A stretch of DNA of 64,000 nucleotides, taken from positions 32,001 through 96,000 of the IMG/VR virus record IMGVR_UViG_3300048014_000057; one strand, 5' to 3'. Below, piece after piece: positions 11,161-58,118 of the stretch. The position numbers and the translations under genes were made by a program. Position 1 is the first letter of the stretch; the number at the start of each line of letters is the position of its first letter. A model generated the notes under the pieces. That model was not told the origin of the DNA, searched no databases, and saw only the letters and a list, made by a program, of their open reading frames with translations. The DNA comes from a virus.

Positions 11161-11186
11161 TTAATAATTCCTTTTTTAAAAAGAGT

Positions 11187-11246
11187 TGGACCAAGGGAAG
11201 GATTCGAACCTCCGACATAAAGCTCTACCAACTGAGCTACCTTGGT
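11187..11246 (-). ncRNA. tRNA-like RNA lacking the anticodon arm (60 nt)
   Basis: ACCAAGG TA GCTC AGTTGGTA GAGC TTTATGTC GGAGG TTCGAAT CCTTC CCTTGGT CCA. Confidence 0.75.
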
Positions 11247-18642: not shown

Positions 18643-19146
18643 TTATTCTCCTAAGTTTTTGATTGAATTAATAGTTAAGATTGTATGAAATCCTTCCGAA
18701 TGAGTAGGAAATTCAAAAGATTTCTTCATACTTTCTACAACAGAAGAAGGAATTGTTTTTCCAGAACGAGAATTAAGTCTTTTATTATATATTTCTTCAT
18801 CTGGGCATTCAATAACAATAGCTATTTTTTTATAATTTTTTGGAATTAGATCAAGAATTTTTTTTCTGGATTTTACGGTTAAATTTGTCCTATCAACAAG
18901 AATATTTTTATTTTCTAAAACTGACTTTTTAATTATATCAAAAAATATATTTGTTGCTTCTTTAATATTACTTTCAAAAATTTCATTATAAGTTTTACCT
19001 TCTAAAACAGCAATTCTTTCTAAAATTCCATCAGAAGAACAAATAACACCATTATTATGAAAATAATTTTGACTTATCCAAGTAGATTTTCCAGAGGCGG
19101 GAAAACCTACCATCATATAAAAATATGGTCCTAAAATTAAAGACAT
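18643..19146 (-). CDS. P-loop kinase (AAA_33 / polynucleotide kinase-like)
   Basis: MVGFPASGKSTW, SSD, VDRTNL...R, P..SEGF. Confidence 0.85.
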   Translation of the reverse strand: MSLILGPYFYMMVGFPASGKSTWISQNYFHNNGVICSSDGILERIAVLEGKTYNEIFESNIKEATNIFFDIIKKSVLENKNILVDRTNLTVKSRKKILDLIPKNYKKIAIVIECPDEEIYNKRLNSRSGKTIPSSVVESMKKSFEFPTHSEGFHTILTINSIKNLGE

Positions 19147-19544
19147 CGAAATCCTTCTTTATTTTCTTCTGTATAATAACAATTTTTAAATTCAAATGTA
19201 GAAATTGCCCTATAACAACCTAAGCATGGACGACATAAACCAGAAATATAAGAGCCACGAGGTTTAGTTTTTTTTACTCTACAAACAAAAATAGAACATT
19301 TCTTAAAATCTTCAATATCGATCTTTTTATAAATATTTTTAATAGCACAAACTTCTGCATGTAAAAAAATAGAATTAGAATTTCTAGAATATTTCTTTTG
19401 AAAAGGATGGGTTTTCAAAAAATTCTGTCCAAATGAAATAATATCGTTTTTGTAGGTAATGCAAGAAACTATTTTTGCATTACCTACACTTTCAATATCT
19501 GAAGCCATATTGAACAATAAATTAAAAATCTTAGATTGATCCAT
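19137..19544 (-). CDS. zinc-dependent nucleotide deaminase family protein
   Basis: HAE...PCLGC. Confidence 0.8.
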   Translation of the reverse strand: MDQSKIFNLLFNMASDIESVGNAKIVSCITYKNDIISFGQNFLKTHPFQKKYSRNSNSIFLHAEVCAIKNIYKKIDIEDFKKCSIFVCRVKKTKPRGSYISGLCRPCLGCYRAISTFEFKNCYYTEENKEGFRCL

Positions 19545-19613
19545 AATAATTAGTCCATTTCAGTTGCTACTTAAGAGCATAGATCAATTTTTTAGAAATG
19601 TCAAGAAAATATT

Positions 19614-19783
19614 TGGCTCCTAGTGTGGGTAACGATCCCACCTAAACATTGCTTAATTTTACAATACATTATTTTAGTATTGTTTAATCTTCCAATACAT
19701 TATTTCAGTATGGACCACTAACTTATAATATATTATAAGTCGTTAATCAGGCAAGTCCTTGCACCATGCTTGGATTCCTAGGA
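19614..19783 (-). tRNA. tRNA-Asn(GTT) interrupted by a 91-nt insertion (19657-19747) in the anticodon
   Basis: TCCTAGG...TTGC CTG|insert|TTAA GCAA...GTGGG ATCGTTA CCCAC ACTAGGA G CCA; TCC/GGA acceptor end and G73 fit Asn. Confidence 0.75.
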
Positions 19784-19857
19784 AAACTCTATTATTTATC
19801 TAATGTAGATAACCAAAAAGTATTAAAATTAAAATAATTATTATAACTAAAGTTATA

Positions 19858-20178
19858 TTATTCATTTAAATCTTCTCCCAAAGCTGTAAGATAAAGATCA
19901 AGTAATTCTTGTTCTTCTTCTCTTTCTTCCCGATCTTTTTTACGAAGTTTTAAAATAATTTTGACAATTTTTGCATCAAAACCAACACCTTTAACTTCTG
20001 TAAATACTTCTTTAATTTGTTCTGAAATATCTTTCTTTTGTTCTTCTAAGTTTTCAATTCTTTTGATAAAATCTAGAAGTGCCTCACTATTAAGTGTTGA
20101 TGCAGATTTAATTGTCTCTTCCTCCTTAATATCTTCCCTAAGAGCATTTTCTAAATCTGAGGATGTTGTATATGACAT
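19858..20178 (-). CDS. gapR: GapR-like nucleoid-associated protein (DUF2312)
   Basis: [44 protein letters not shown]...LLDLY..ALG. Confidence 0.93.
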
Positions 20179-30277: not shown

Positions 30278-33026
30278 TTTTACTAAATCCTTTCTCTTTT
30301 TTAAATTCGATTATATTTTCTATTCTATCCTTATTTTTTTCATTATGAGAAATAATAAACACATTTTCATCCTTTGTCAATCTTTTTAAAATATTAAGGT
30401 AAGAATCTATTCCATCTGCATCCATACTACCATCAAGAGTTTCATCAAAAATAAGTAAATTTGTATCGAGTGAATTTCTTCTTTTTGCCACTTCTCTGAA
30501 AGTAAAGAGAAGTGCCAAATTAATTCTCATTTTTTCTCCTTGACTAAAAGACTGAAAAATATGTTCATCACGATATCTAGATTTTATAACTTCATTAAAA
30601 TTTTCATCTACTGTAAATTGACAAATAAAATCCATTTCAAGAAGAAATTTATTTATTAATTCATTAATCACTTCAATATATTGTTTAATAATAGAAGCCT
30701 TGACTCCATCATCTCGAAGAAGTTTAAGTAATATATTCATATTTTCTTTTTGAATTACTAAATTATCATAATTTTTAATATAATTTTCAAGAGAATTTTG
30801 TAATTGTAAAATTTCTTCTGTTTTATCTTCCACATTTTCATTTTTAAAAGAATTAATTTTTATTTTTAATTCATTAGCAAGAGAAGTAATATTTTTTAAT
30901 TCATATAAAATTAAATCAATTTTAGAATTAACTTCTTTCATGGATTTAATAGAATCATTAAATTTATCAATTTCTAATTCTAATTTATCATATGTTCTTT
31001 GGTATATTTTTACCTGATCTAAATTATGAGTATGTTGTATCCTTTTTTCTTGTATAATAATATCCTTAAAAGTTTCATCAATATTTTGATTACATACATT
31101 ACAAACACACGTATTTTCATAATAATACATTTCTTTTTCTAGTTTTTTATTTTCAAGTTTTAAATTATTAATATCACTTCCAAGTTTATAATAAAGTGAT
31201 TCTTTAGTTTTTAATTCATCTTCTATTTTAGAAGTATCAAATTTTTCTGGTATATTCTTCTTTTTTAACAAATATGATTTTCTGTATTCCTCTAATTTTT
31301 CTTCCATTTCTAAAATTTGTTTTTGATTATCTTCTTTTCTTTTTTTATTATATTCTTCCAATAATTTGATTCTATTTTTTAAAGTATTTTGTTCGGTTCT
31401 TAATTCATAGATATTTTTTTCATTATCTTGAATTCTTTTTTTAAGTATTAAATTCATAGAAGAAAATATTTCAAGATCAAGTAAATTTTCTACTATTTTT
31501 CTTCTATCTGGTAAAGGAAGTTCTAAAAAAGGAACATACGAAGCCGAACCCAAAACACAAACTTGACAAAATGCCTTATGATTAATATGAAGAATATTTT
31601 CTTCTAAATATTTTTGATAATCATCTTGGTTTGTATTATTCAATAATACATTATTTTTATATATTTCAAATTTATTAGGTTTTATACCTCTAATAATCTT
31701 ATAAAAATCTTGTCCTATGGTAAATTCTATTTCCACCAGACAATTTTTCTTTGTCATTGAATTAACCAAAAGAGATAAAGTTACTTTTCTAAATGGTTTT
31801 TTAAACAAACAAAAACAAAGAGCATCAAGACAAGTCGAATTATGAGTTACAACATAATTATCAGTTACATATAACTGAGAAGGATGATCAATAGAAATAC
31901 ATTTAACAATTTCTTTTTCAATTTTTTCAATTTTTTCAATTCTTAAACGTAAAGAATCTTTATATTGATAATTTTTACATCTTTCTTTTTTTCTAGATAA
32001 TGAAAATAACTCAGATGGATTTTTATATCTAATATTTAATTGATATGATAATCTTCCTTTCTTTTTTATTCCTTTATTTGTAAAGGAAGGATTTTTTTCT
32101 GAAATTTTACAAATACCACCAATAGAAAATATTAATTCTTGTATATCTTTGGCTAATTCATAACTTGTTGTTGAATAAGAAATAGAACCGTTTCTATCAG
32201 CAGTTCCATCTGTATCCATTAAACCACGTAATAATTCTATTTTTTGATTAAAAGAAATATTTTTATATAATTCTGGAATATTTTTTTCCCAGGATCGTTT
32301 TCCATATAAATTTAATTTTTTTAATTCTTCTTTAAATATGTGTTTTTCATATTTAATACCATAATTAATTCTATAAGAACATCTTGTTTGAACTTTTGAT
32401 AAATGTAATTTTACAATCCTAGGACAAGTAAAATCAAGAATATTTCTTACTTTATTTAATAATTCTTCATCTGTATTTGTTATTGTTACATTACTACTAG
32501 TAAATGATCCATCACCAATTAAAACACCTAATAAATAAGGATTAATTGGTAAATCTACATCTTTTTTTATAAAATTTTCTGCTTCAAAAAGTTGAATAAA
32601 ATGATTATCAGTAAAATTACCTAATGAATTTTCTTTTTCTTTTAAAATTTCTAAAAGAGATAAAATTTTCCATTGCCATTTTGATTCAAAATATCCCCAT
32701 ACTCTAAAAAGATGGTTTTCCCCACATTTAACTTTTCTTCCATCTTTAAATGTAATTTCATATACATTTTCTTCTCCGATAAATGGAATATCAATTACTT
32801 TTGATATATCTCCATTAGCAGATACAATTTCATCTCCAATTTTTATATTACCAATAGTATTCCATCCTAAAGGTGTTAGGATTTTTGAATATAATGGTTG
32901 TGCTTTACCAGCACCATTTATACCAACAATAAGTGAAATAGAATTTTCGTTTAATTTTATTTCTGTCCATTGATTACCAGATGATAAAAAATTCTGGTAA
33001 CGAATAGTATTAAATATTATTTTCAT
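30267..33026 (-). CDS. gp46: recombination endonuclease subunit gp46 (Rad50-like), intein-containing
   Basis: NFLSSGN, G.NGAGK|S, CNVC zinc hook, SFSQGEK.RI.LAL, DETLD, ISH. Confidence 0.96.
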   Translation of the reverse strand: MKIIFNTIRYQNFLSSGNQWTEIKLNENSISLIVGINGAGKAQPLYSKILTPLGWNTIGNIKIGDEIVSANGDISKVIDIPFIGEENVYEITFKDGRKVKCGENHLFRVWGYFESKWQWKILSLLEILKEKENSLGNFTDNHFIQLFEAENFIKKDVDLPINPYLLGVLIGDGSFTSSNVTITNTDEELLNKVRNILDFTCPRIVKLHLSKVQTRCSYRINYGIKYEKHIFKEELKKLNLYGKRSWEKNIPELYKNISFNQKIELLRGLMDTDGTADRNGSISYSTTSYELAKDIQELIFSIGGICKISEKNPSFTNKGIKKKGRLSYQLNIRYKNPSELFSLSRKKERCKNYQYKDSLRLRIEKIEKIEKEIVKCISIDHPSQLYVTDNYVVTHNSTCLDALCFCLFKKPFRKVTLSLLVNSMTKKNCLVEIEFTIGQDFYKIIRGIKPNKFEIYKNNVLLNNTNQDDYQKYLEENILHINHKAFCQVCVLGSASYVPFLELPLPDRRKIVENLLDLEIFSSMNLILKKRIQDNEKNIYELRTEQNTLKNRIKLLEEYNKKRKEDNQKQILEMEEKLEEYRKSYLLKKKNIPEKFDTSKIEDELKTKESLYYKLGSDINNLKLENKKLEKEMYYYENTCVCNVCNQNIDETFKDIIIQEKRIQHTHNLDQVKIYQRTYDKLELEIDKFNDSIKSMKEVNSKIDLILYELKNITSLANELKIKINSFKNENVEDKTEEILQLQNSLENYIKNYDNLVIQKENMNILLKLLRDDGVKASIIKQYIEVINELINKFLLEMDFICQFTVDENFNEVIKSRYRDEHIFQSFSQGEKMRINLALLFTFREVAKRRNSLDTNLLIFDETLDGSMDADGIDSYLNILKRLTKDENVFIISHNEKNKDRIENIIEFKKEKGFSKIVK
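31839..32903 (-). mobile_element. intein (355 aa) with LAGLIDADG endonuclease, Ala1 start
   Basis: GK|AQPLYSKILTP...YLLGVLIGDG...LRGLMDTDG...VKCISID...VVTHN|S; inserted in Walker A. Confidence 0.93.
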
Positions 33027-39701: not shown

Positions 39702-39777
39702 CAGGGTAGACGTAGGGTTAGAATACTGCCTCCCTTGGAAGGAGGTCAATCTGGGGCAGCGCCAGATACCCTGACCA
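39702..39777 (+). tRNA. tRNA-Pro(TGG) with atypical T-loop
   Basis: CAGGGTA...CCTCC CTTGGAA GGAGG...TCTGG GGCAGCG CCAGA TACCCTG A CCA. Confidence 0.82.
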
Positions 39778-39837: not shown

Positions 39838-39913
39838 GGGCTCGCATGTTCCAAGGGGGCGAACTGCACTTGCAATGCGGTTGTGGTGAATTCGATTTTC
39901 ACCGAGTCCACCA
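39838..39913 (+). tRNA. tRNA-Ala(TGC)
   Basis: GGGCTCG/CGAGTCC with G3-U70; CTGCA CTTGCAA TGCGG; A CCA. Confidence 0.9.
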
Positions 39914-42784: not shown

Positions 42785-43933
42785 ATGTTTCCTAAAATTG
42801 AAACCATATTTGATATTCTACCTCATATTGAAGGAAAAGATAATTTTACAGTTAATTATAAAGATGATTATATTGTTGTAAATTATATTCTTAATACTCC
42901 GGAATATTTTAATAATCCATGGGAAAAAGAATGCCGTGGATTAATTTTTGATAAAGATGGCAATATCATGTCACGCCCTTTTCAGAAATTCTTTAATATT
43001 GGTGAACGTGAAGAAACAAAAATTGAAAATATTGATTTTTCTAAACCACATTGGATTTTAGAAAAGGTAGATGGAAGTTTTATAAGGTCAATTATTACTG
43101 ATGGTAAATTAACTTGGGCTTCCAAAGCAGGAATTACTTTCCTTACACCTATGGTTGAAGAATTTGTAGAAAAAAATAAGCAATATTATACTTTTGCTGC
43201 TGTAATGATGAATCATGGTTTAACTCCTATTTTTGAATTTTGTTCTAGAAAAAATAAAATTGTTATTGATCATCCTTTTGATAGATTAGTCCTTTTAGGA
43301 ATAAGAGATAATATTACAGGTAAATATCATGATTATGAATTATTGCAAGATTTTTCTAGAATGTATAATATTGAACTTGTTAAACAATATTATCTTAATG
43401 ATCTTTCTCTAACAGAATTATTAGAATTAGCAAAAAAATTAACAAATCAAGAAGGATTTGTTATAAGATTTGAAGATGGAAATATGATTAAGTTAAAAAG
43501 TGAAGAATACTGTCTTCTTCATAAATCTAAAGAAGAACTTCATTTTGAAAAAAATGTAGTTTCTATTATTATTGAAGATAAAGCAGATGACTTTCGAGTT
43601 CTTCTATCAAAAGAAGATAGAGAAAAATTTGAAGAATTTGAATATAAATTTTGGAAAAATTTCGAAGAATATGTAATGGATATTTATAATTTACATTACA
43701 TATATAATATTTCTAAAATTTCCAGAAAAGATTTTGCTTTGTTATCTAAAGATTGGAAATATAAATATCATAGATCAATTTTATTTACATTTTTTGATAA
43801 AATTGATTTTTCTATTGTTGAAAGTAAAAAAGAATTATTAAATATTCTTAGAAAAAATCTTGGAACACAAACATCAATAGATAAAGTAAGAGAAATTTGG
43901 GAAGGTAAAGAAAAATTAAAATGGAATTATTAG
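42785..43933 (+). CDS. rnlA: RNA ligase 1 (RnlA-like)
   Basis: ECRGLIFD, SRPFQKFFN.GE, EKVDGS, FEF...N.IV, EGFV, K.KS.EY. Confidence 0.93.
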   Translation: MFPKIETIFDILPHIEGKDNFTVNYKDDYIVVNYILNTPEYFNNPWEKECRGLIFDKDGNIMSRPFQKFFNIGEREETKIENIDFSKPHWILEKVDGSFIRSIITDGKLTWASKAGITFLTPMVEEFVEKNKQYYTFAAVMMNHGLTPIFEFCSRKNKIVIDHPFDRLVLLGIRDNITGKYHDYELLQDFSRMYNIELVKQYYLNDLSLTELLELAKKLTNQEGFVIRFEDGNMIKLKSEEYCLLHKSKEELHFEKNVVSIIIEDKADDFRVLLSKEDREKFEEFEYKFWKNFEEYVMDIYNLHYIYNISKISRKDFALLSKDWKYKYHRSILFTFFDKIDFSIVESKKELLNILRKNLGTQTSIDKVREIWEGKEKLKWNY

Positions 43934-47212: not shown

Positions 47213-47295
47213 GGCTTCGTAAACGAGGGGAGCTTCTAACTCCTTAGTCGTAACTGGATTTGAAAATGAAGGTTCGATTCCTTCCGAAGTCACCA
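47213..47295 (+). tRNA. atypical tRNA-Arg(TCT): no D-arm, extended variable region
   Basis: GGCTTCG TAAACGA GGGGAG CTTCTAA CTCCTT AGTC GTAACTG GATT TGAAAAT GAAGG TTCGATT CCTTC CGAAGTC A CCA. Confidence 0.75.
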
Positions 47296-55019: not shown

Positions 55020-55388
55020 ATGGATAAGTCTTTAAAAGAAAAGTGGATTAAAAAACTTACTTCTGGTAAATATCGTCAATGTCAAAATAGTTTAAAGAAA
55101 GAAACTCGTGATGGTGGAGTTAGTTTTTGTTGTTTAGGAATTTTAGCAGAATGTATTGATCCTGACTATTTTACAGAAGAAAAATTTAAATATCAAAATA
55201 ATAGAACTAAAGCATTTGTTCCAAATTCTAAATATTTCCCATCTTTTGTAAATATTGGTATGTTACCTGATTTTATTTTAAATAAAATTAGGTTAATCTC
55301 AGAACAACAAAATATATTAATAGAAATGAATGATAATAAGGGTAAAAAATTTAAAACAATTGCTAAATGGATTGAAGAAAATCTATAA
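55020..55388 (+). CDS. hypothetical phage protein
   Basis: W...L.SGKY.Q....L, FCCLG.L, ND...F..IA.WIE. Confidence 0.65.
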   Translation: MDKSLKEKWIKKLTSGKYRQCQNSLKKETRDGGVSFCCLGILAECIDPDYFTEEKFKYQNNRTKAFVPNSKYFPSFVNIGMLPDFILNKIRLISEQQNILIEMNDNKGKKFKTIAKWIEENL

Positions 55389-55398
55389 ATAAAATAAT

Positions 55399-55490
55399 GC
55401 GGGATTAGTGTAATGGTAGCACACGGTCCTTATAAGGCCGCATCGCCAGATTAGCGAGTAGTAAAAGTTCGAATCTTTTATCCCGTACCA
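55399..55490 (+). tRNA. tRNA-Ile(TAT) with long variable arm
   Basis: CGGTC CT TAT AA GGCCG; variable arm TCGC CAGATTA GCGA; TTCGAAT; A CCA; TATAAATA at 55384. Confidence 0.85.
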
Positions 55491-57067: not shown

Positions 57068-58118
57068 TATAGTAAGAAAACTAGCAAGTATTCGTCGTAT
57101 TGCAGAAATTAAACCAATCGAAGGTGCTGATAAAATTGTTGCTTATAGAGTTGACGGATGGTGGGTAGTTTCACAAAAAGATGCTTTTAATGTTGGAGAC
57201 CTAGTTTTATATTTTGAGATTGATTCGTTTTTAAATGTAAGACCAGAATTCGAATTTCTTAGGAAAAATTCTTTTAAATCTACTAAAAATTTAGGAGATG
57301 GTTTTAGAATTAAAACTATTAAACTTAAAGGTCAAATTTCCCAAGGATTAATTCTTCCTATAACTGATTTTCAAGAATTTTTACAAACAAATCAAGACGG
57401 ACAAAAATTAATTGAATTTCTTAATGAAGGTGATAATGTTACTGAAATTCTTGGAATTCAAAAATATGAAAAGCCAATTCCATCTTGTCTTCAAGGAACA
57501 GTAAAAGGTAATTTTCCTTCATTTATTAGAAAAACTGATCAAGAACGATATCAAAATCTATCAGAAAAAGAAAAAAATTGTTATAAAAATATTCCATTTG
57601 AAGTTACTGTTAAAATGGATGGTTCTTCTATGACTGTTTATTATAAAGATGGAGATTTTGGTGTATGTTCCAGAAATCTTGATCTTAAAGATGATACAGA
57701 AAATCTTTATTGGAAAATTGCTAAAGAATTAAAACTAAAAGAAAAATTAGAAAAACTGCAATATAATATTGCATTACAAATGGAACTTTGTGGACCAGGA
57801 ATTCAAGGAAATCCACAAAAATTAGATACACATAAAGTTTTTATATTTGATATCTATGATATTAATTGTCAAAGATACTTTTCTCCATATGAAAGATATA
57901 TAATTTTAGAAAAATTAAATCTTTTATTTAATATTGTTCCTATATTAGGAATAAATTATTTTGGAGAAAATATTTTCGATCATGAAAAAATTCATATGAT
58001 AGCAGATAACACTAGATATAATAATATTCCTGCAGAAGGAGTTGTATTTAAATCAATGCGTGGCAGATATTCATTTAAAATGATAAGTAATGTATATTTG
58101 TTAAAAGAGAAAGATTAA
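57060..58118 (+). CDS. RNA ligase, DRB0094 family
   Basis: RKLASIRRI..I.PI.GAD.I, YFEIDS, GQISQG, KTD.ER.QN, KMDGSS, GIQGN, EGVV.K, SFK.ISN.YLL. Confidence 0.92.
   Translation: MNDIVRKLASIRRIAEIKPIEGADKIVAYRVDGWWVVSQKDAFNVGDLVLYFEIDSFLNVRPEFEFLRKNSFKSTKNLGDGFRIKTIKLKGQISQGLILPITDFQEFLQTNQDGQKLIEFLNEGDNVTEILGIQKYEKPIPSCLQGTVKGNFPSFIRKTDQERYQNLSEKEKNCYKNIPFEVTVKMDGSSMTVYYKDGDFGVCSRNLDLKDDTENLYWKIAKELKLKEKLEKLQYNIALQMELCGPGIQGNPQKLDTHKVFIFDIYDINCQRYFSPYERYIILEKLNLLFNIVPILGINYFGENIFDHEKIHMIADNTRYNNIPAEGVVFKSMRGRYSFKMISNVYLLKEKD

Follow-up and report, generated by a model that had tools for sequence, protein, structure and literature searches.

A 64,000-nt stretch of viral DNA, positions 32,001 to 96,000 of the IMG/VR virus record IMGVR_UViG_3300048014_000057 and hereafter called the window, carries on its minus strand (19783..19614) an interrupted gene of 170 nt which, judged by its sequence, is the phage's single tRNA-Asn(GUU), with the break falling exactly between bases 34 and 35 of the anticodon. 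The record, assembled from a metagenome, has 144,859 bp, 26% G+C and an estimated completeness of 84%. Regarding the nature of the insert, we tentatively favour, with slightly less than even confidence, the view that it is a protein-dependent phage tRNA intron and belongs, as an atypical and seemingly young case, to the short "enigmatic" introns of phage tRNA genes. Independently of the insert's fate, the analysis revealed a non-canonical tRNA-Asn family which occurs widely in the tRNA arrays of phages and which ARAGORN and Rfam overlook.

The three parts of the gene were delimited by comparison with 16 uninterrupted homologues. The 5' exon (36 nt, 19783..19748, minus strand) matches the uninterrupted family column for column and ends in CTTGCCTG; it comprises the 5' strand of the acceptor stem, A8A9, the D hairpin GCA-TGG-TGC, the 5' strand of the anticodon stem and the bases C32, U33 and G34. 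The insert (91 nt, 19747..19657, minus strand, 16% G+C), as defined by the alignment with the homologues, starts with ATTAAC and ends with GTAAAA. The 3' exon (43 nt, 19656..19614, minus strand), assigned by the family alignment and by the family covariance model described below, starts with TTAAGCAATG and ends with GGAGCCA; it contains U35, U36, A37 and A38, the 3' strand of the anticodon stem, the variable loop, the T arm (loop ATCGTTA), the 3' strand of the acceptor stem, G73 and an encoded CCA. All 16 homologues read ...CTG|TTAA... across the junction, and because no other cut restores the family sequence, the insert is placed between wobble base 34 and base 35, with both junctions base-exact in the alignment. 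An initial annotation of this DNA had proposed a split tRNA-Asn(GUU) with G73 and encoded CCA, excision at 34/35 to give CT-GTT-AA, and the motif ATTAA at both junctions. The homologues and the matches to the family model bear out the split tRNA and the position of the junction; ATTAA stands at the start of the insert and across the 3' junction, and an additional, third copy lies inside the insert.

In phage contigs, exact matches were sought first to the T arm (18 nt) and next to the 5' half, which brought the family to light. Its 16 uninterrupted members, which come from IMG/VR phage contigs and from cultured T4-like Acinetobacter phages, align without gaps over 79 nt with 42 invariant columns (alignment A1), and this alignment is the basis of the covariance model (R1). 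The cloverleaf is supported by covariation: 94.7% of the cells are paired, compared to 32–44% when the partners are slid by 1–3 columns, double-sided changes are found in 13 of the 20 pairs, and none of 500 shuffles reached the observed values. Family members score 95–105 bits with R1, ordinary tRNAs at most 45 bits.

Several traits set these genes apart from canonical tRNAs. They carry A8A9 in place of U8 and an invariant D hairpin GCA-TGG-TGC (GCATGGTGC), the spacing between D stem and anticodon stem is one nucleotide short, and a C.U/A mismatch sits atop a 4-bp anticodon stem. Furthermore, the 7:66 pair is usually mismatched, the T loop often reads ATCGTTA, and CCA is mostly encoded. The family-invariant loop CUGUUAA, U1-A72 and G73 fit asparagine identity, with the identity elements of the E. 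coli AsnRS as the reference. Owing to the non-canonical traits, ARAGORN misses 14 of 15 uninterrupted members; Rfam RF00005 called none of the 10 members tested, though these sit in arrays of 10–32 ordinary tRNAs. Of the 15 family-bearing loci in which ARAGORN calls any tRNAs, 14 yielded no further Asn call, so that the family fills the Asn slot of these arrays. Cultured T4-like Acinetobacter phages, among them Lazarus, KARL-1 and AM101, carry the gene as well, in 25 GenBank records; the records checked carry no tRNA annotation for it, mostly showing no feature and in a few cases a hypothetical protein. Inventories of phage tRNAs that were compiled with these tools, and arguments on codon usage that depend on the tools, are therefore incomplete.

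The Lazarus member (L063:1501-1579; MN782535, 74670-74748) gave no Rfam tRNA match even at E up to 1. Just upstream of it lie an unannotated tRNA (L063:1324-1394, Rfam 50 bits) and a tRNA-like stretch with a TTCGATT T loop (L063:1409-1490). A phage tRNA array that holds another member also contains a GOLLD RNA (L036:2601-3063, Rfam RF02032, 222.8 bits). The T arm GGTGGGATCGTTACCCAC, in which A54/U58 are swapped relative to the usual T54-A58, recurs verbatim in phage tRNAs of several anticodons (viral loci L010, L013, L015, L019-L024 and others), which suggests a phage-typical T-loop variant.

The putative tRNA gene of the window belongs to this non-canonical, strongly covarying tRNA-Asn family. 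Counted over both exons, it is identical to its homologue in locus L032 at 75 of 79 positions. None of the 42 invariant columns is changed, no position shows a state unseen in the family, and the sole pairing mismatches are the family-typical 7:69 and 13:25. Decay of the tRNA halves, which the initial annotation had named beforehand as a sign that would speak against its proposal, is thus absent. The two best R1 matches in the window are the two gene halves, with 31.2 and 31.1 bits (E ~1.5e-7). Unlike all 16 other members, the gene does not have the contiguous 79-nt form. ARAGORN, run with or without introns, called neither the gene nor any of 99 in-silico spliced variants, and Rfam RF00005 (gathering threshold 29 bits) likewise called neither the gene nor its spliced forms. 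As both tools miss the uninterrupted relatives too, their silence is no evidence against the tRNA identity.

No other Asn tRNA was found in the 144.9-kb record, and asparagine is the most used amino acid of its genes, accounting for 9.1% of codons, of which 94% are AAT. A T4-type late-promoter-like box, GATAAATA (19800..19793, minus strand), lies 9 nt before tRNA position 1, as had been noted initially, and TATAAATA precedes the uninterrupted homologues in loci L009 and L045 with the same 9-nt spacing. An argument from TATAAATA alone was rejected, because the motif is not enriched in the AT-rich window (18 found, 27 expected); the kept spacing is the remaining evidence. TATAAATA also occurs at 55384-55391 on the plus strand, 7 nt before a tRNA-Ile(UAU) gene at 55399, a distance similar to that at the Asn gene and its homologues, which suggests that late-type promoters may drive single tRNA genes.

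Next, we analyzed the insert itself. It is single-copy in the genome and shows no significant similarity to either exon beyond a tandem repeat. The first third contains a perfect 20-nt palindrome with an 8-bp stem and a TATA loop (19721..19740, minus strand). The minimum-energy fold predicted for the 170-mer keeps all four tRNA stems and adds five AU/GU pairs to the anticodon stem, so that the ends of the insert come together. The initial annotation had described three hairpins, all of which exist as possible folds; in the minimum-energy fold, the 7-bp hairpin 3 is kept, while the palindrome region pairs with hairpin 2 to form one long imperfect hairpin. A tRNA-shaped mini-intron would begin at the first base of an acceptor/T-like minihelix and end in CCA, and nucleotides 1–31 of the insert can form a 6+6-bp helix followed by GGTCCA. 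In a post-hoc test, 34 of 20,000 shuffles did likewise; the best fold is more stable by 3 kcal/mol, the CCA is 3 nt out of register and another 54 nt follow.

The two "related hairpins" of the initial annotation, in which events at the DNA level were not considered, turned out to be one 31-nt tandem repeat (2.1 copies, 87% identity, 19648..19711, minus strand, Tandem Repeats Finder). Unit 1 (19711..19681, minus strand) and unit 2 (19680..19650, minus strand) each contain one hairpin, whose 9-nt loop reads T(G/A)AAATAAT. Unit 1 ends in TTAAACA and unit 2 in TTAAGCA, the latter being the first 7 nt of the 3' exon, and the repeat as a whole reaches 7–9 nt into this exon. The local alignment score of the units was reached by none of 500 shuffles. 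A tandem duplication that straddles the 3' junction means that DNA-level events shaped the insert, and its history is that an insert of about 60 nt came first, followed by a 31-bp duplication over the insert-exon boundary and then by divergence of the copies. The two units now differ at 4 of 31 positions (13%, or ~6.5% each). If this divergence is used as a clock, neutral decay at the repeat rate gives a probability of ~0.06 or less that the invariant positions would have remained unchanged, and of ~0.3–0.5 at the lower bound of the rate. The intact body next to diverged repeats is therefore moderate evidence for continuing selection on the RNA body.

Searches for relatives of the insert were negative throughout. 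Neither the hairpin nor the palindrome had an exact match in IMG/VR, and blastn of the insert against GenBank phages returned nothing. No insert-bearing relative was detected in IMG/VR by a 5'-half pattern or by 3'-half patterns with both T-loop types, and the 5' half followed by a non-T base gave seven matches in JGI metagenome contigs, all of them chance hits in GC-rich genes. Among prokaryote genomes, the insert hairpin had nine exact matches, the number expected by chance, with no similarity in their flanks.

The known classes of tRNA introns were then considered. In the tRNA-Leu(UAA) gene, a group I intron also splits the bond 34/35. Group I introns of bacterial and plastid tRNAs, such as the 205-nt intron of the Azoarcus tRNA-Ile (PMC3984707, PMC13168695), likewise interrupt the anticodon loop of a bacterial-type tRNA. 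However, they measure at least ~200 nt, possess a P1–P9 core, follow a 5' exon ending in U and terminate in G, whereas the AU-rich insert described here has 91 nt and no core, follows a G and ends in A. Together with the lack of an Rfam match, this excludes a group I intron, in agreement with the initial proposal. At the locus (19400-20000, both strands, E up to 10), Rfam yielded no intron and no tRNA match, and no match to a self-cleaving ribozyme (hammerhead, twister, pistol, hatchet, hairpin or HDV-like).

The introns of archaea and eukaryotes that are spliced by proteins (EndA/TSEN with RtcB or Trl1; PMC4090602) offer a closer parallel, as they are small, non-catalytic, and cut and rejoined by proteins, and in archaea they can take non-canonical positions, even inside the anticodon. 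The insert could form a 4-bp UUAA/UUAA helix, but the bulges do not fit the archaeal type, and the host is presumably bacterial. We rejected a bulge-helix-bulge intron because the predicted folds place both junctions inside one continuous AU helix and because the record contains neither EndA nor RtcB; the initial remark that no bulge-helix-bulge was obvious thus holds for the predicted fold. The three AUUAA motifs were also considered as RNase E-type sites, in which a uridine stands two nucleotides downstream of the cut (PMC5222698). Both junctions fit, but trivially so in such an AU-rich sequence, and the idea is speculation only.

A group of short introns reported by Devoto et al. in 2019 comes closest. 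That study (PMC6784885) describes "enigmatic introns" in tRNA genes of Lak megaphages which could not be classified by Rfam. Like the insert reported here, these are short, Rfam-unclassifiable, and present in some genomes while absent from relatives. By the same account, the Lak introns are identical across cohorts and recurrent, whereas the present insert is a singleton, is longer (91 nt), consists of AU-rich hairpins and a tandem repeat, and resides in a T4-like phage of ~145 kb. It fits the description of a short non-self-splicing insert that interrupts the anticodon loop while leaving the rest of a phage tRNA gene intact. Recurrence, the other Lak-type feature, was not observed, with no further carrier in IMG/VR, JGI metagenome contigs or GenBank phages.

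A second tRNA gene with an insert at the same bond was found among the other viral loci. Locus L016:7555-7680 (identical in L027) contains a phage tRNA-Lys(UUU) of 123 nt that matches the full Rfam tRNA model with 56.9 bits. ARAGORN places a 50-nt insert after base 34, and the exons join uniquely as CTT|TTAA. This insert contains a T-arm-like hairpin, GGAG-TTCAAAC-CTCC, and is also a singleton, as a search of IMG/VR with a 3'-exon pattern gave no other carrier. All remaining "intron" calls of ARAGORN in the tRNA arrays of these loci were rejected as fusions of neighbouring tRNAs. Random insertion would bring two unrelated inserts to the same 34/35 bond in about 1 of 76 positions. Such a coincidence is unlikely by chance and suggests a site-specific process, acting at either the DNA or the RNA level.

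With regard to enzymes that might act on such a transcript, the initial annotation had pointed to a deaminase and a Pnk-like kinase as the next genes and to two RNA ligases in the window, and all four were recovered by domain searches. A cytidine/dCMP deaminase-family gene (19137..19544, minus strand; Pfam PF00383; PHROG dCMP deaminase) lies downstream, with a sigma-70-like promoter, TTGACA-17-TATGCT (19576..19604, minus strand, 10/12 consensus positions), just after the tRNA and facing the deaminase gene. Being most likely a dCMP deaminase, its product is no RNA-pathway enzyme. It is followed by a gene for a 167-aa P-loop kinase related to polynucleotide kinase domains and lacking a phosphatase domain (18643..19146, minus strand; Pfam AAA_33; PHROG 505 polynucleotide kinase, E 6e-14). 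The ligases are represented by an Rnl1-type RNA ligase domain in a 384-aa open reading frame (42929..43510, plus strand; PF09511, 120.5 bits) and a second RNA ligase domain in a 353-aa open reading frame (57594..58082, plus strand; PF09414, 99.8 bits).

T4-type genes of the record include those for an RNase H and a UvsX-like recombinase. It also carries a GapR gene and an alpha-type two-piece tmRNA, from which we infer that the host may be alphaproteobacterial. Proteins identical to the GapR and the deaminase were found only in one Logan contig, assembled from run ERR9963779, and there too a spacer of 313 nt separates the two genes; judged by proteins and spacer length, the insert is therefore hardly an artefact that arose in a single assembly. 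The nearest further relatives of the deaminase are at most 50% identical and non-syntenic, which means that the phage has no known close kin.

Taken as a protein-dependent intron, the insert could be processed as follows. Transcription would start from the late-type box 9 nt upstream, the ends of the transcript would be processed as in the uninterrupted relatives, and the insert would fold as an independent domain atop an anticodon stem lengthened by ~5 AU/GU pairs. Since the insert is unable to self-splice, its removal would fall to proteins. An endonuclease of host or phage origin would cut at G34|A and A|U35, the Pnk-like kinase would heal the ends if healing is needed, and the phage-encoded Rnl1-type ligase, as an enzyme sealing anticodon loops, would rejoin the halves to give a decoding tRNA-Asn. 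We infer every step after transcription, and sealing by the Rnl1-type ligase is a plausible last one. In phage T4, Rnl1 and Pnkp reseal the anticodon-loop breaks made by PrrC. An Rnl1-type ligase, a Pnk-like kinase and a bond within the anticodon loop, one position away from the PrrC site, are common to that repair and to the proposed pathway. The T4 system, however, mends one nick and removes nothing, whereas two cuts 91 nt apart would be required here, for which no nuclease is known, and the kinase has no phosphatase domain.

The case for a protein-dependent intron is built on the intact exons of the phage's only Asn tRNA, the conserved promoter spacing, a predicted fold that joins the ends of the insert, the tRNA-Lys gene of L016, the Lak precedent, the presence of ligases and a kinase, and the second assembly. 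Several observations weigh against it. No candidate for the endonuclease was found, as EndA (PF01974), RtcB and RNase III are absent from the proteins of the record. T4-like phages without split tRNAs commonly encode RNA ligases and Pnk-like kinases, whose presence is therefore weak evidence. No relative carries anything like this singleton insert, and for this reason there is no conservation or covariation to mark it as a selected RNA. In addition, the clock argument takes neutral evolution of the repeat copies for granted. A duplication across the junction is also expected of a decaying locus, and it creates a second, slightly degenerate copy of the 3' junction; TTAA on both sides of the insert would likewise be expected from a microhomology-mediated insertion of DNA.

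The last two points lead directly to the alternative that the gene is dead or dying. In that scenario, a microhomology-mediated or filler-DNA insertion, followed by a slippage duplication, inactivated the tRNA-Asn, any transcript would fail to mature into a tRNA, and the phage uses the tRNA-Asn of its host. The unique, single-copy nature of the insert would be explained, as would the TTAA microhomology at both junctions, the 31-nt duplication straddling one of them, the failure to find a known splicing signal (Rfam) or enzyme (EndA, RtcB and RNase III searches), and the fact that 16 of 16 other family members are uninterrupted. A decaying gene would, however, hardly keep all 42 invariant positions and every stem flawless while the duplicated units have diverged by 13%, nor would one expect its loss to hit the sole Asn tRNA in a genome where asparagine is the most used amino acid. 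The shared insertion point with the tRNA of L016 and the equal spacer length in the second assembly speak against it as well, and on balance we regard a dead gene as unlikely, though to be taken seriously. An assembly artefact, that is a chimeric join or a collapsed or expanded repeat, deserves almost no credence; a metagenome assembly with a tandem repeat in the region invites the suspicion, but the repeat copies are distinguishable by their four differences, both junctions are clean to the base, and flanking proteins and the 313-nt spacer agree with those of the independent Logan assembly.

Two further explanations accept the locus as genuine. The 170-nt transcript could be processed at its ends by way of the intact acceptor/T-arm module and otherwise stay whole, the tRNA body serving as a scaffold for an AU-rich hairpin domain that acts as a decoy for anticodon nucleases, a protein sponge or a small regulatory RNA. 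The bond 34/35 is the cut site of colicin E5-type nucleases in Asn, Asp, His and Tyr tRNAs, which counts for such a role. The acceptor, D and T arms are undamaged, as is the encoded CCA, which is expected of a selected RNA, and the insert is predicted to extend the anticodon stem and to fold separately. T4 species 1 (rnaC) RNA and engineered tRNA scaffolds share the principle of an acceptor/T-arm module with CCA that encloses a folded domain in place of the anticodon loop, but here the body is otherwise a perfect member of a decoding-tRNA family and the cargo is unique to one genome. That this cargo is conserved nowhere in IMG/VR or GenBank phages, and that the phage would forfeit its only Asn tRNA, which its relatives keep, makes the unspliced form decidedly unlikely; the retention of all anticodon-loop bases on both sides, dispensable in a scaffold, adds a weak argument, as it concerns just 7 nt. 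A miniature mobile element, either a MITE (miniature inverted-repeat transposable element) or a palindrome-associated element of the IS200/IS605 type, transposed into the TTAA of the anticodon loop would account for the origin of the insert only and is silent on the fate of the RNA. On the plus strand, TTAA directly precedes the insert, an arrangement like that of IS200/IS605 elements, which are located 3' of their target; TTAA is present on both flanks and hairpins are found near both ends. Yet the two end hairpins are mutually unrelated, terminal inverted repeats are missing, an extra A before the first TTAA spoils a clean target duplication, and neither a Y1 transposase (Y1_Tnp) nor TnpB was found in the record. 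The lack of a second copy, with the nine prokaryote matches being due to chance, refutes an element family, and we hold this origin to be highly improbable.

Returning to the protein-dependent intron, the two inserts at bond 34/35 could belong to an undemonstrated, protein-based mode of tRNA splicing in phage-infected bacteria, in which inserts at this position are cut out by an endonuclease and the exons resealed by a phage Rnl1-type ligase, the insert of the window being a young, still evolving member. We consider this general scheme possible, if somewhat doubtful. If true, it would extend protein-dependent, non-ribozyme tRNA splicing, which textbooks reserve for archaea and eukaryotes, to bacteria or their phages, and phage RNA ligases and kinases would have an everyday task besides the repair of nuclease damage. 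As 16 relatives show the gene in its uninterrupted form, there is no ambiguity about the spliced junction to expect, G34-U35.

Further tRNA-like sequences in the window suggest that the phage seems to carry several non-canonical tRNAs. Between a tRNA-Met and a tRNA-Tyr gene on the plus strand lie two GC-rich tRNA-like genes called by neither ARAGORN nor Rfam. Judged by eye, the loop of the first, at 39702-39777, reads CTTGGAA (Pro, UGG) and its T loop is odd; that of the second, at 39838-39913, reads CTTGCAA (Ala, UGC), and this gene has G3.T70 and an unusual D arm. Low-score matches of R1 are a weak tRNA at 47213-47295 on the plus strand (Rfam 33.7 bits) and, at 11186-11246 on the minus strand, a tRNA-like gene of 58–60 nt whose anticodon arm is apparently missing.

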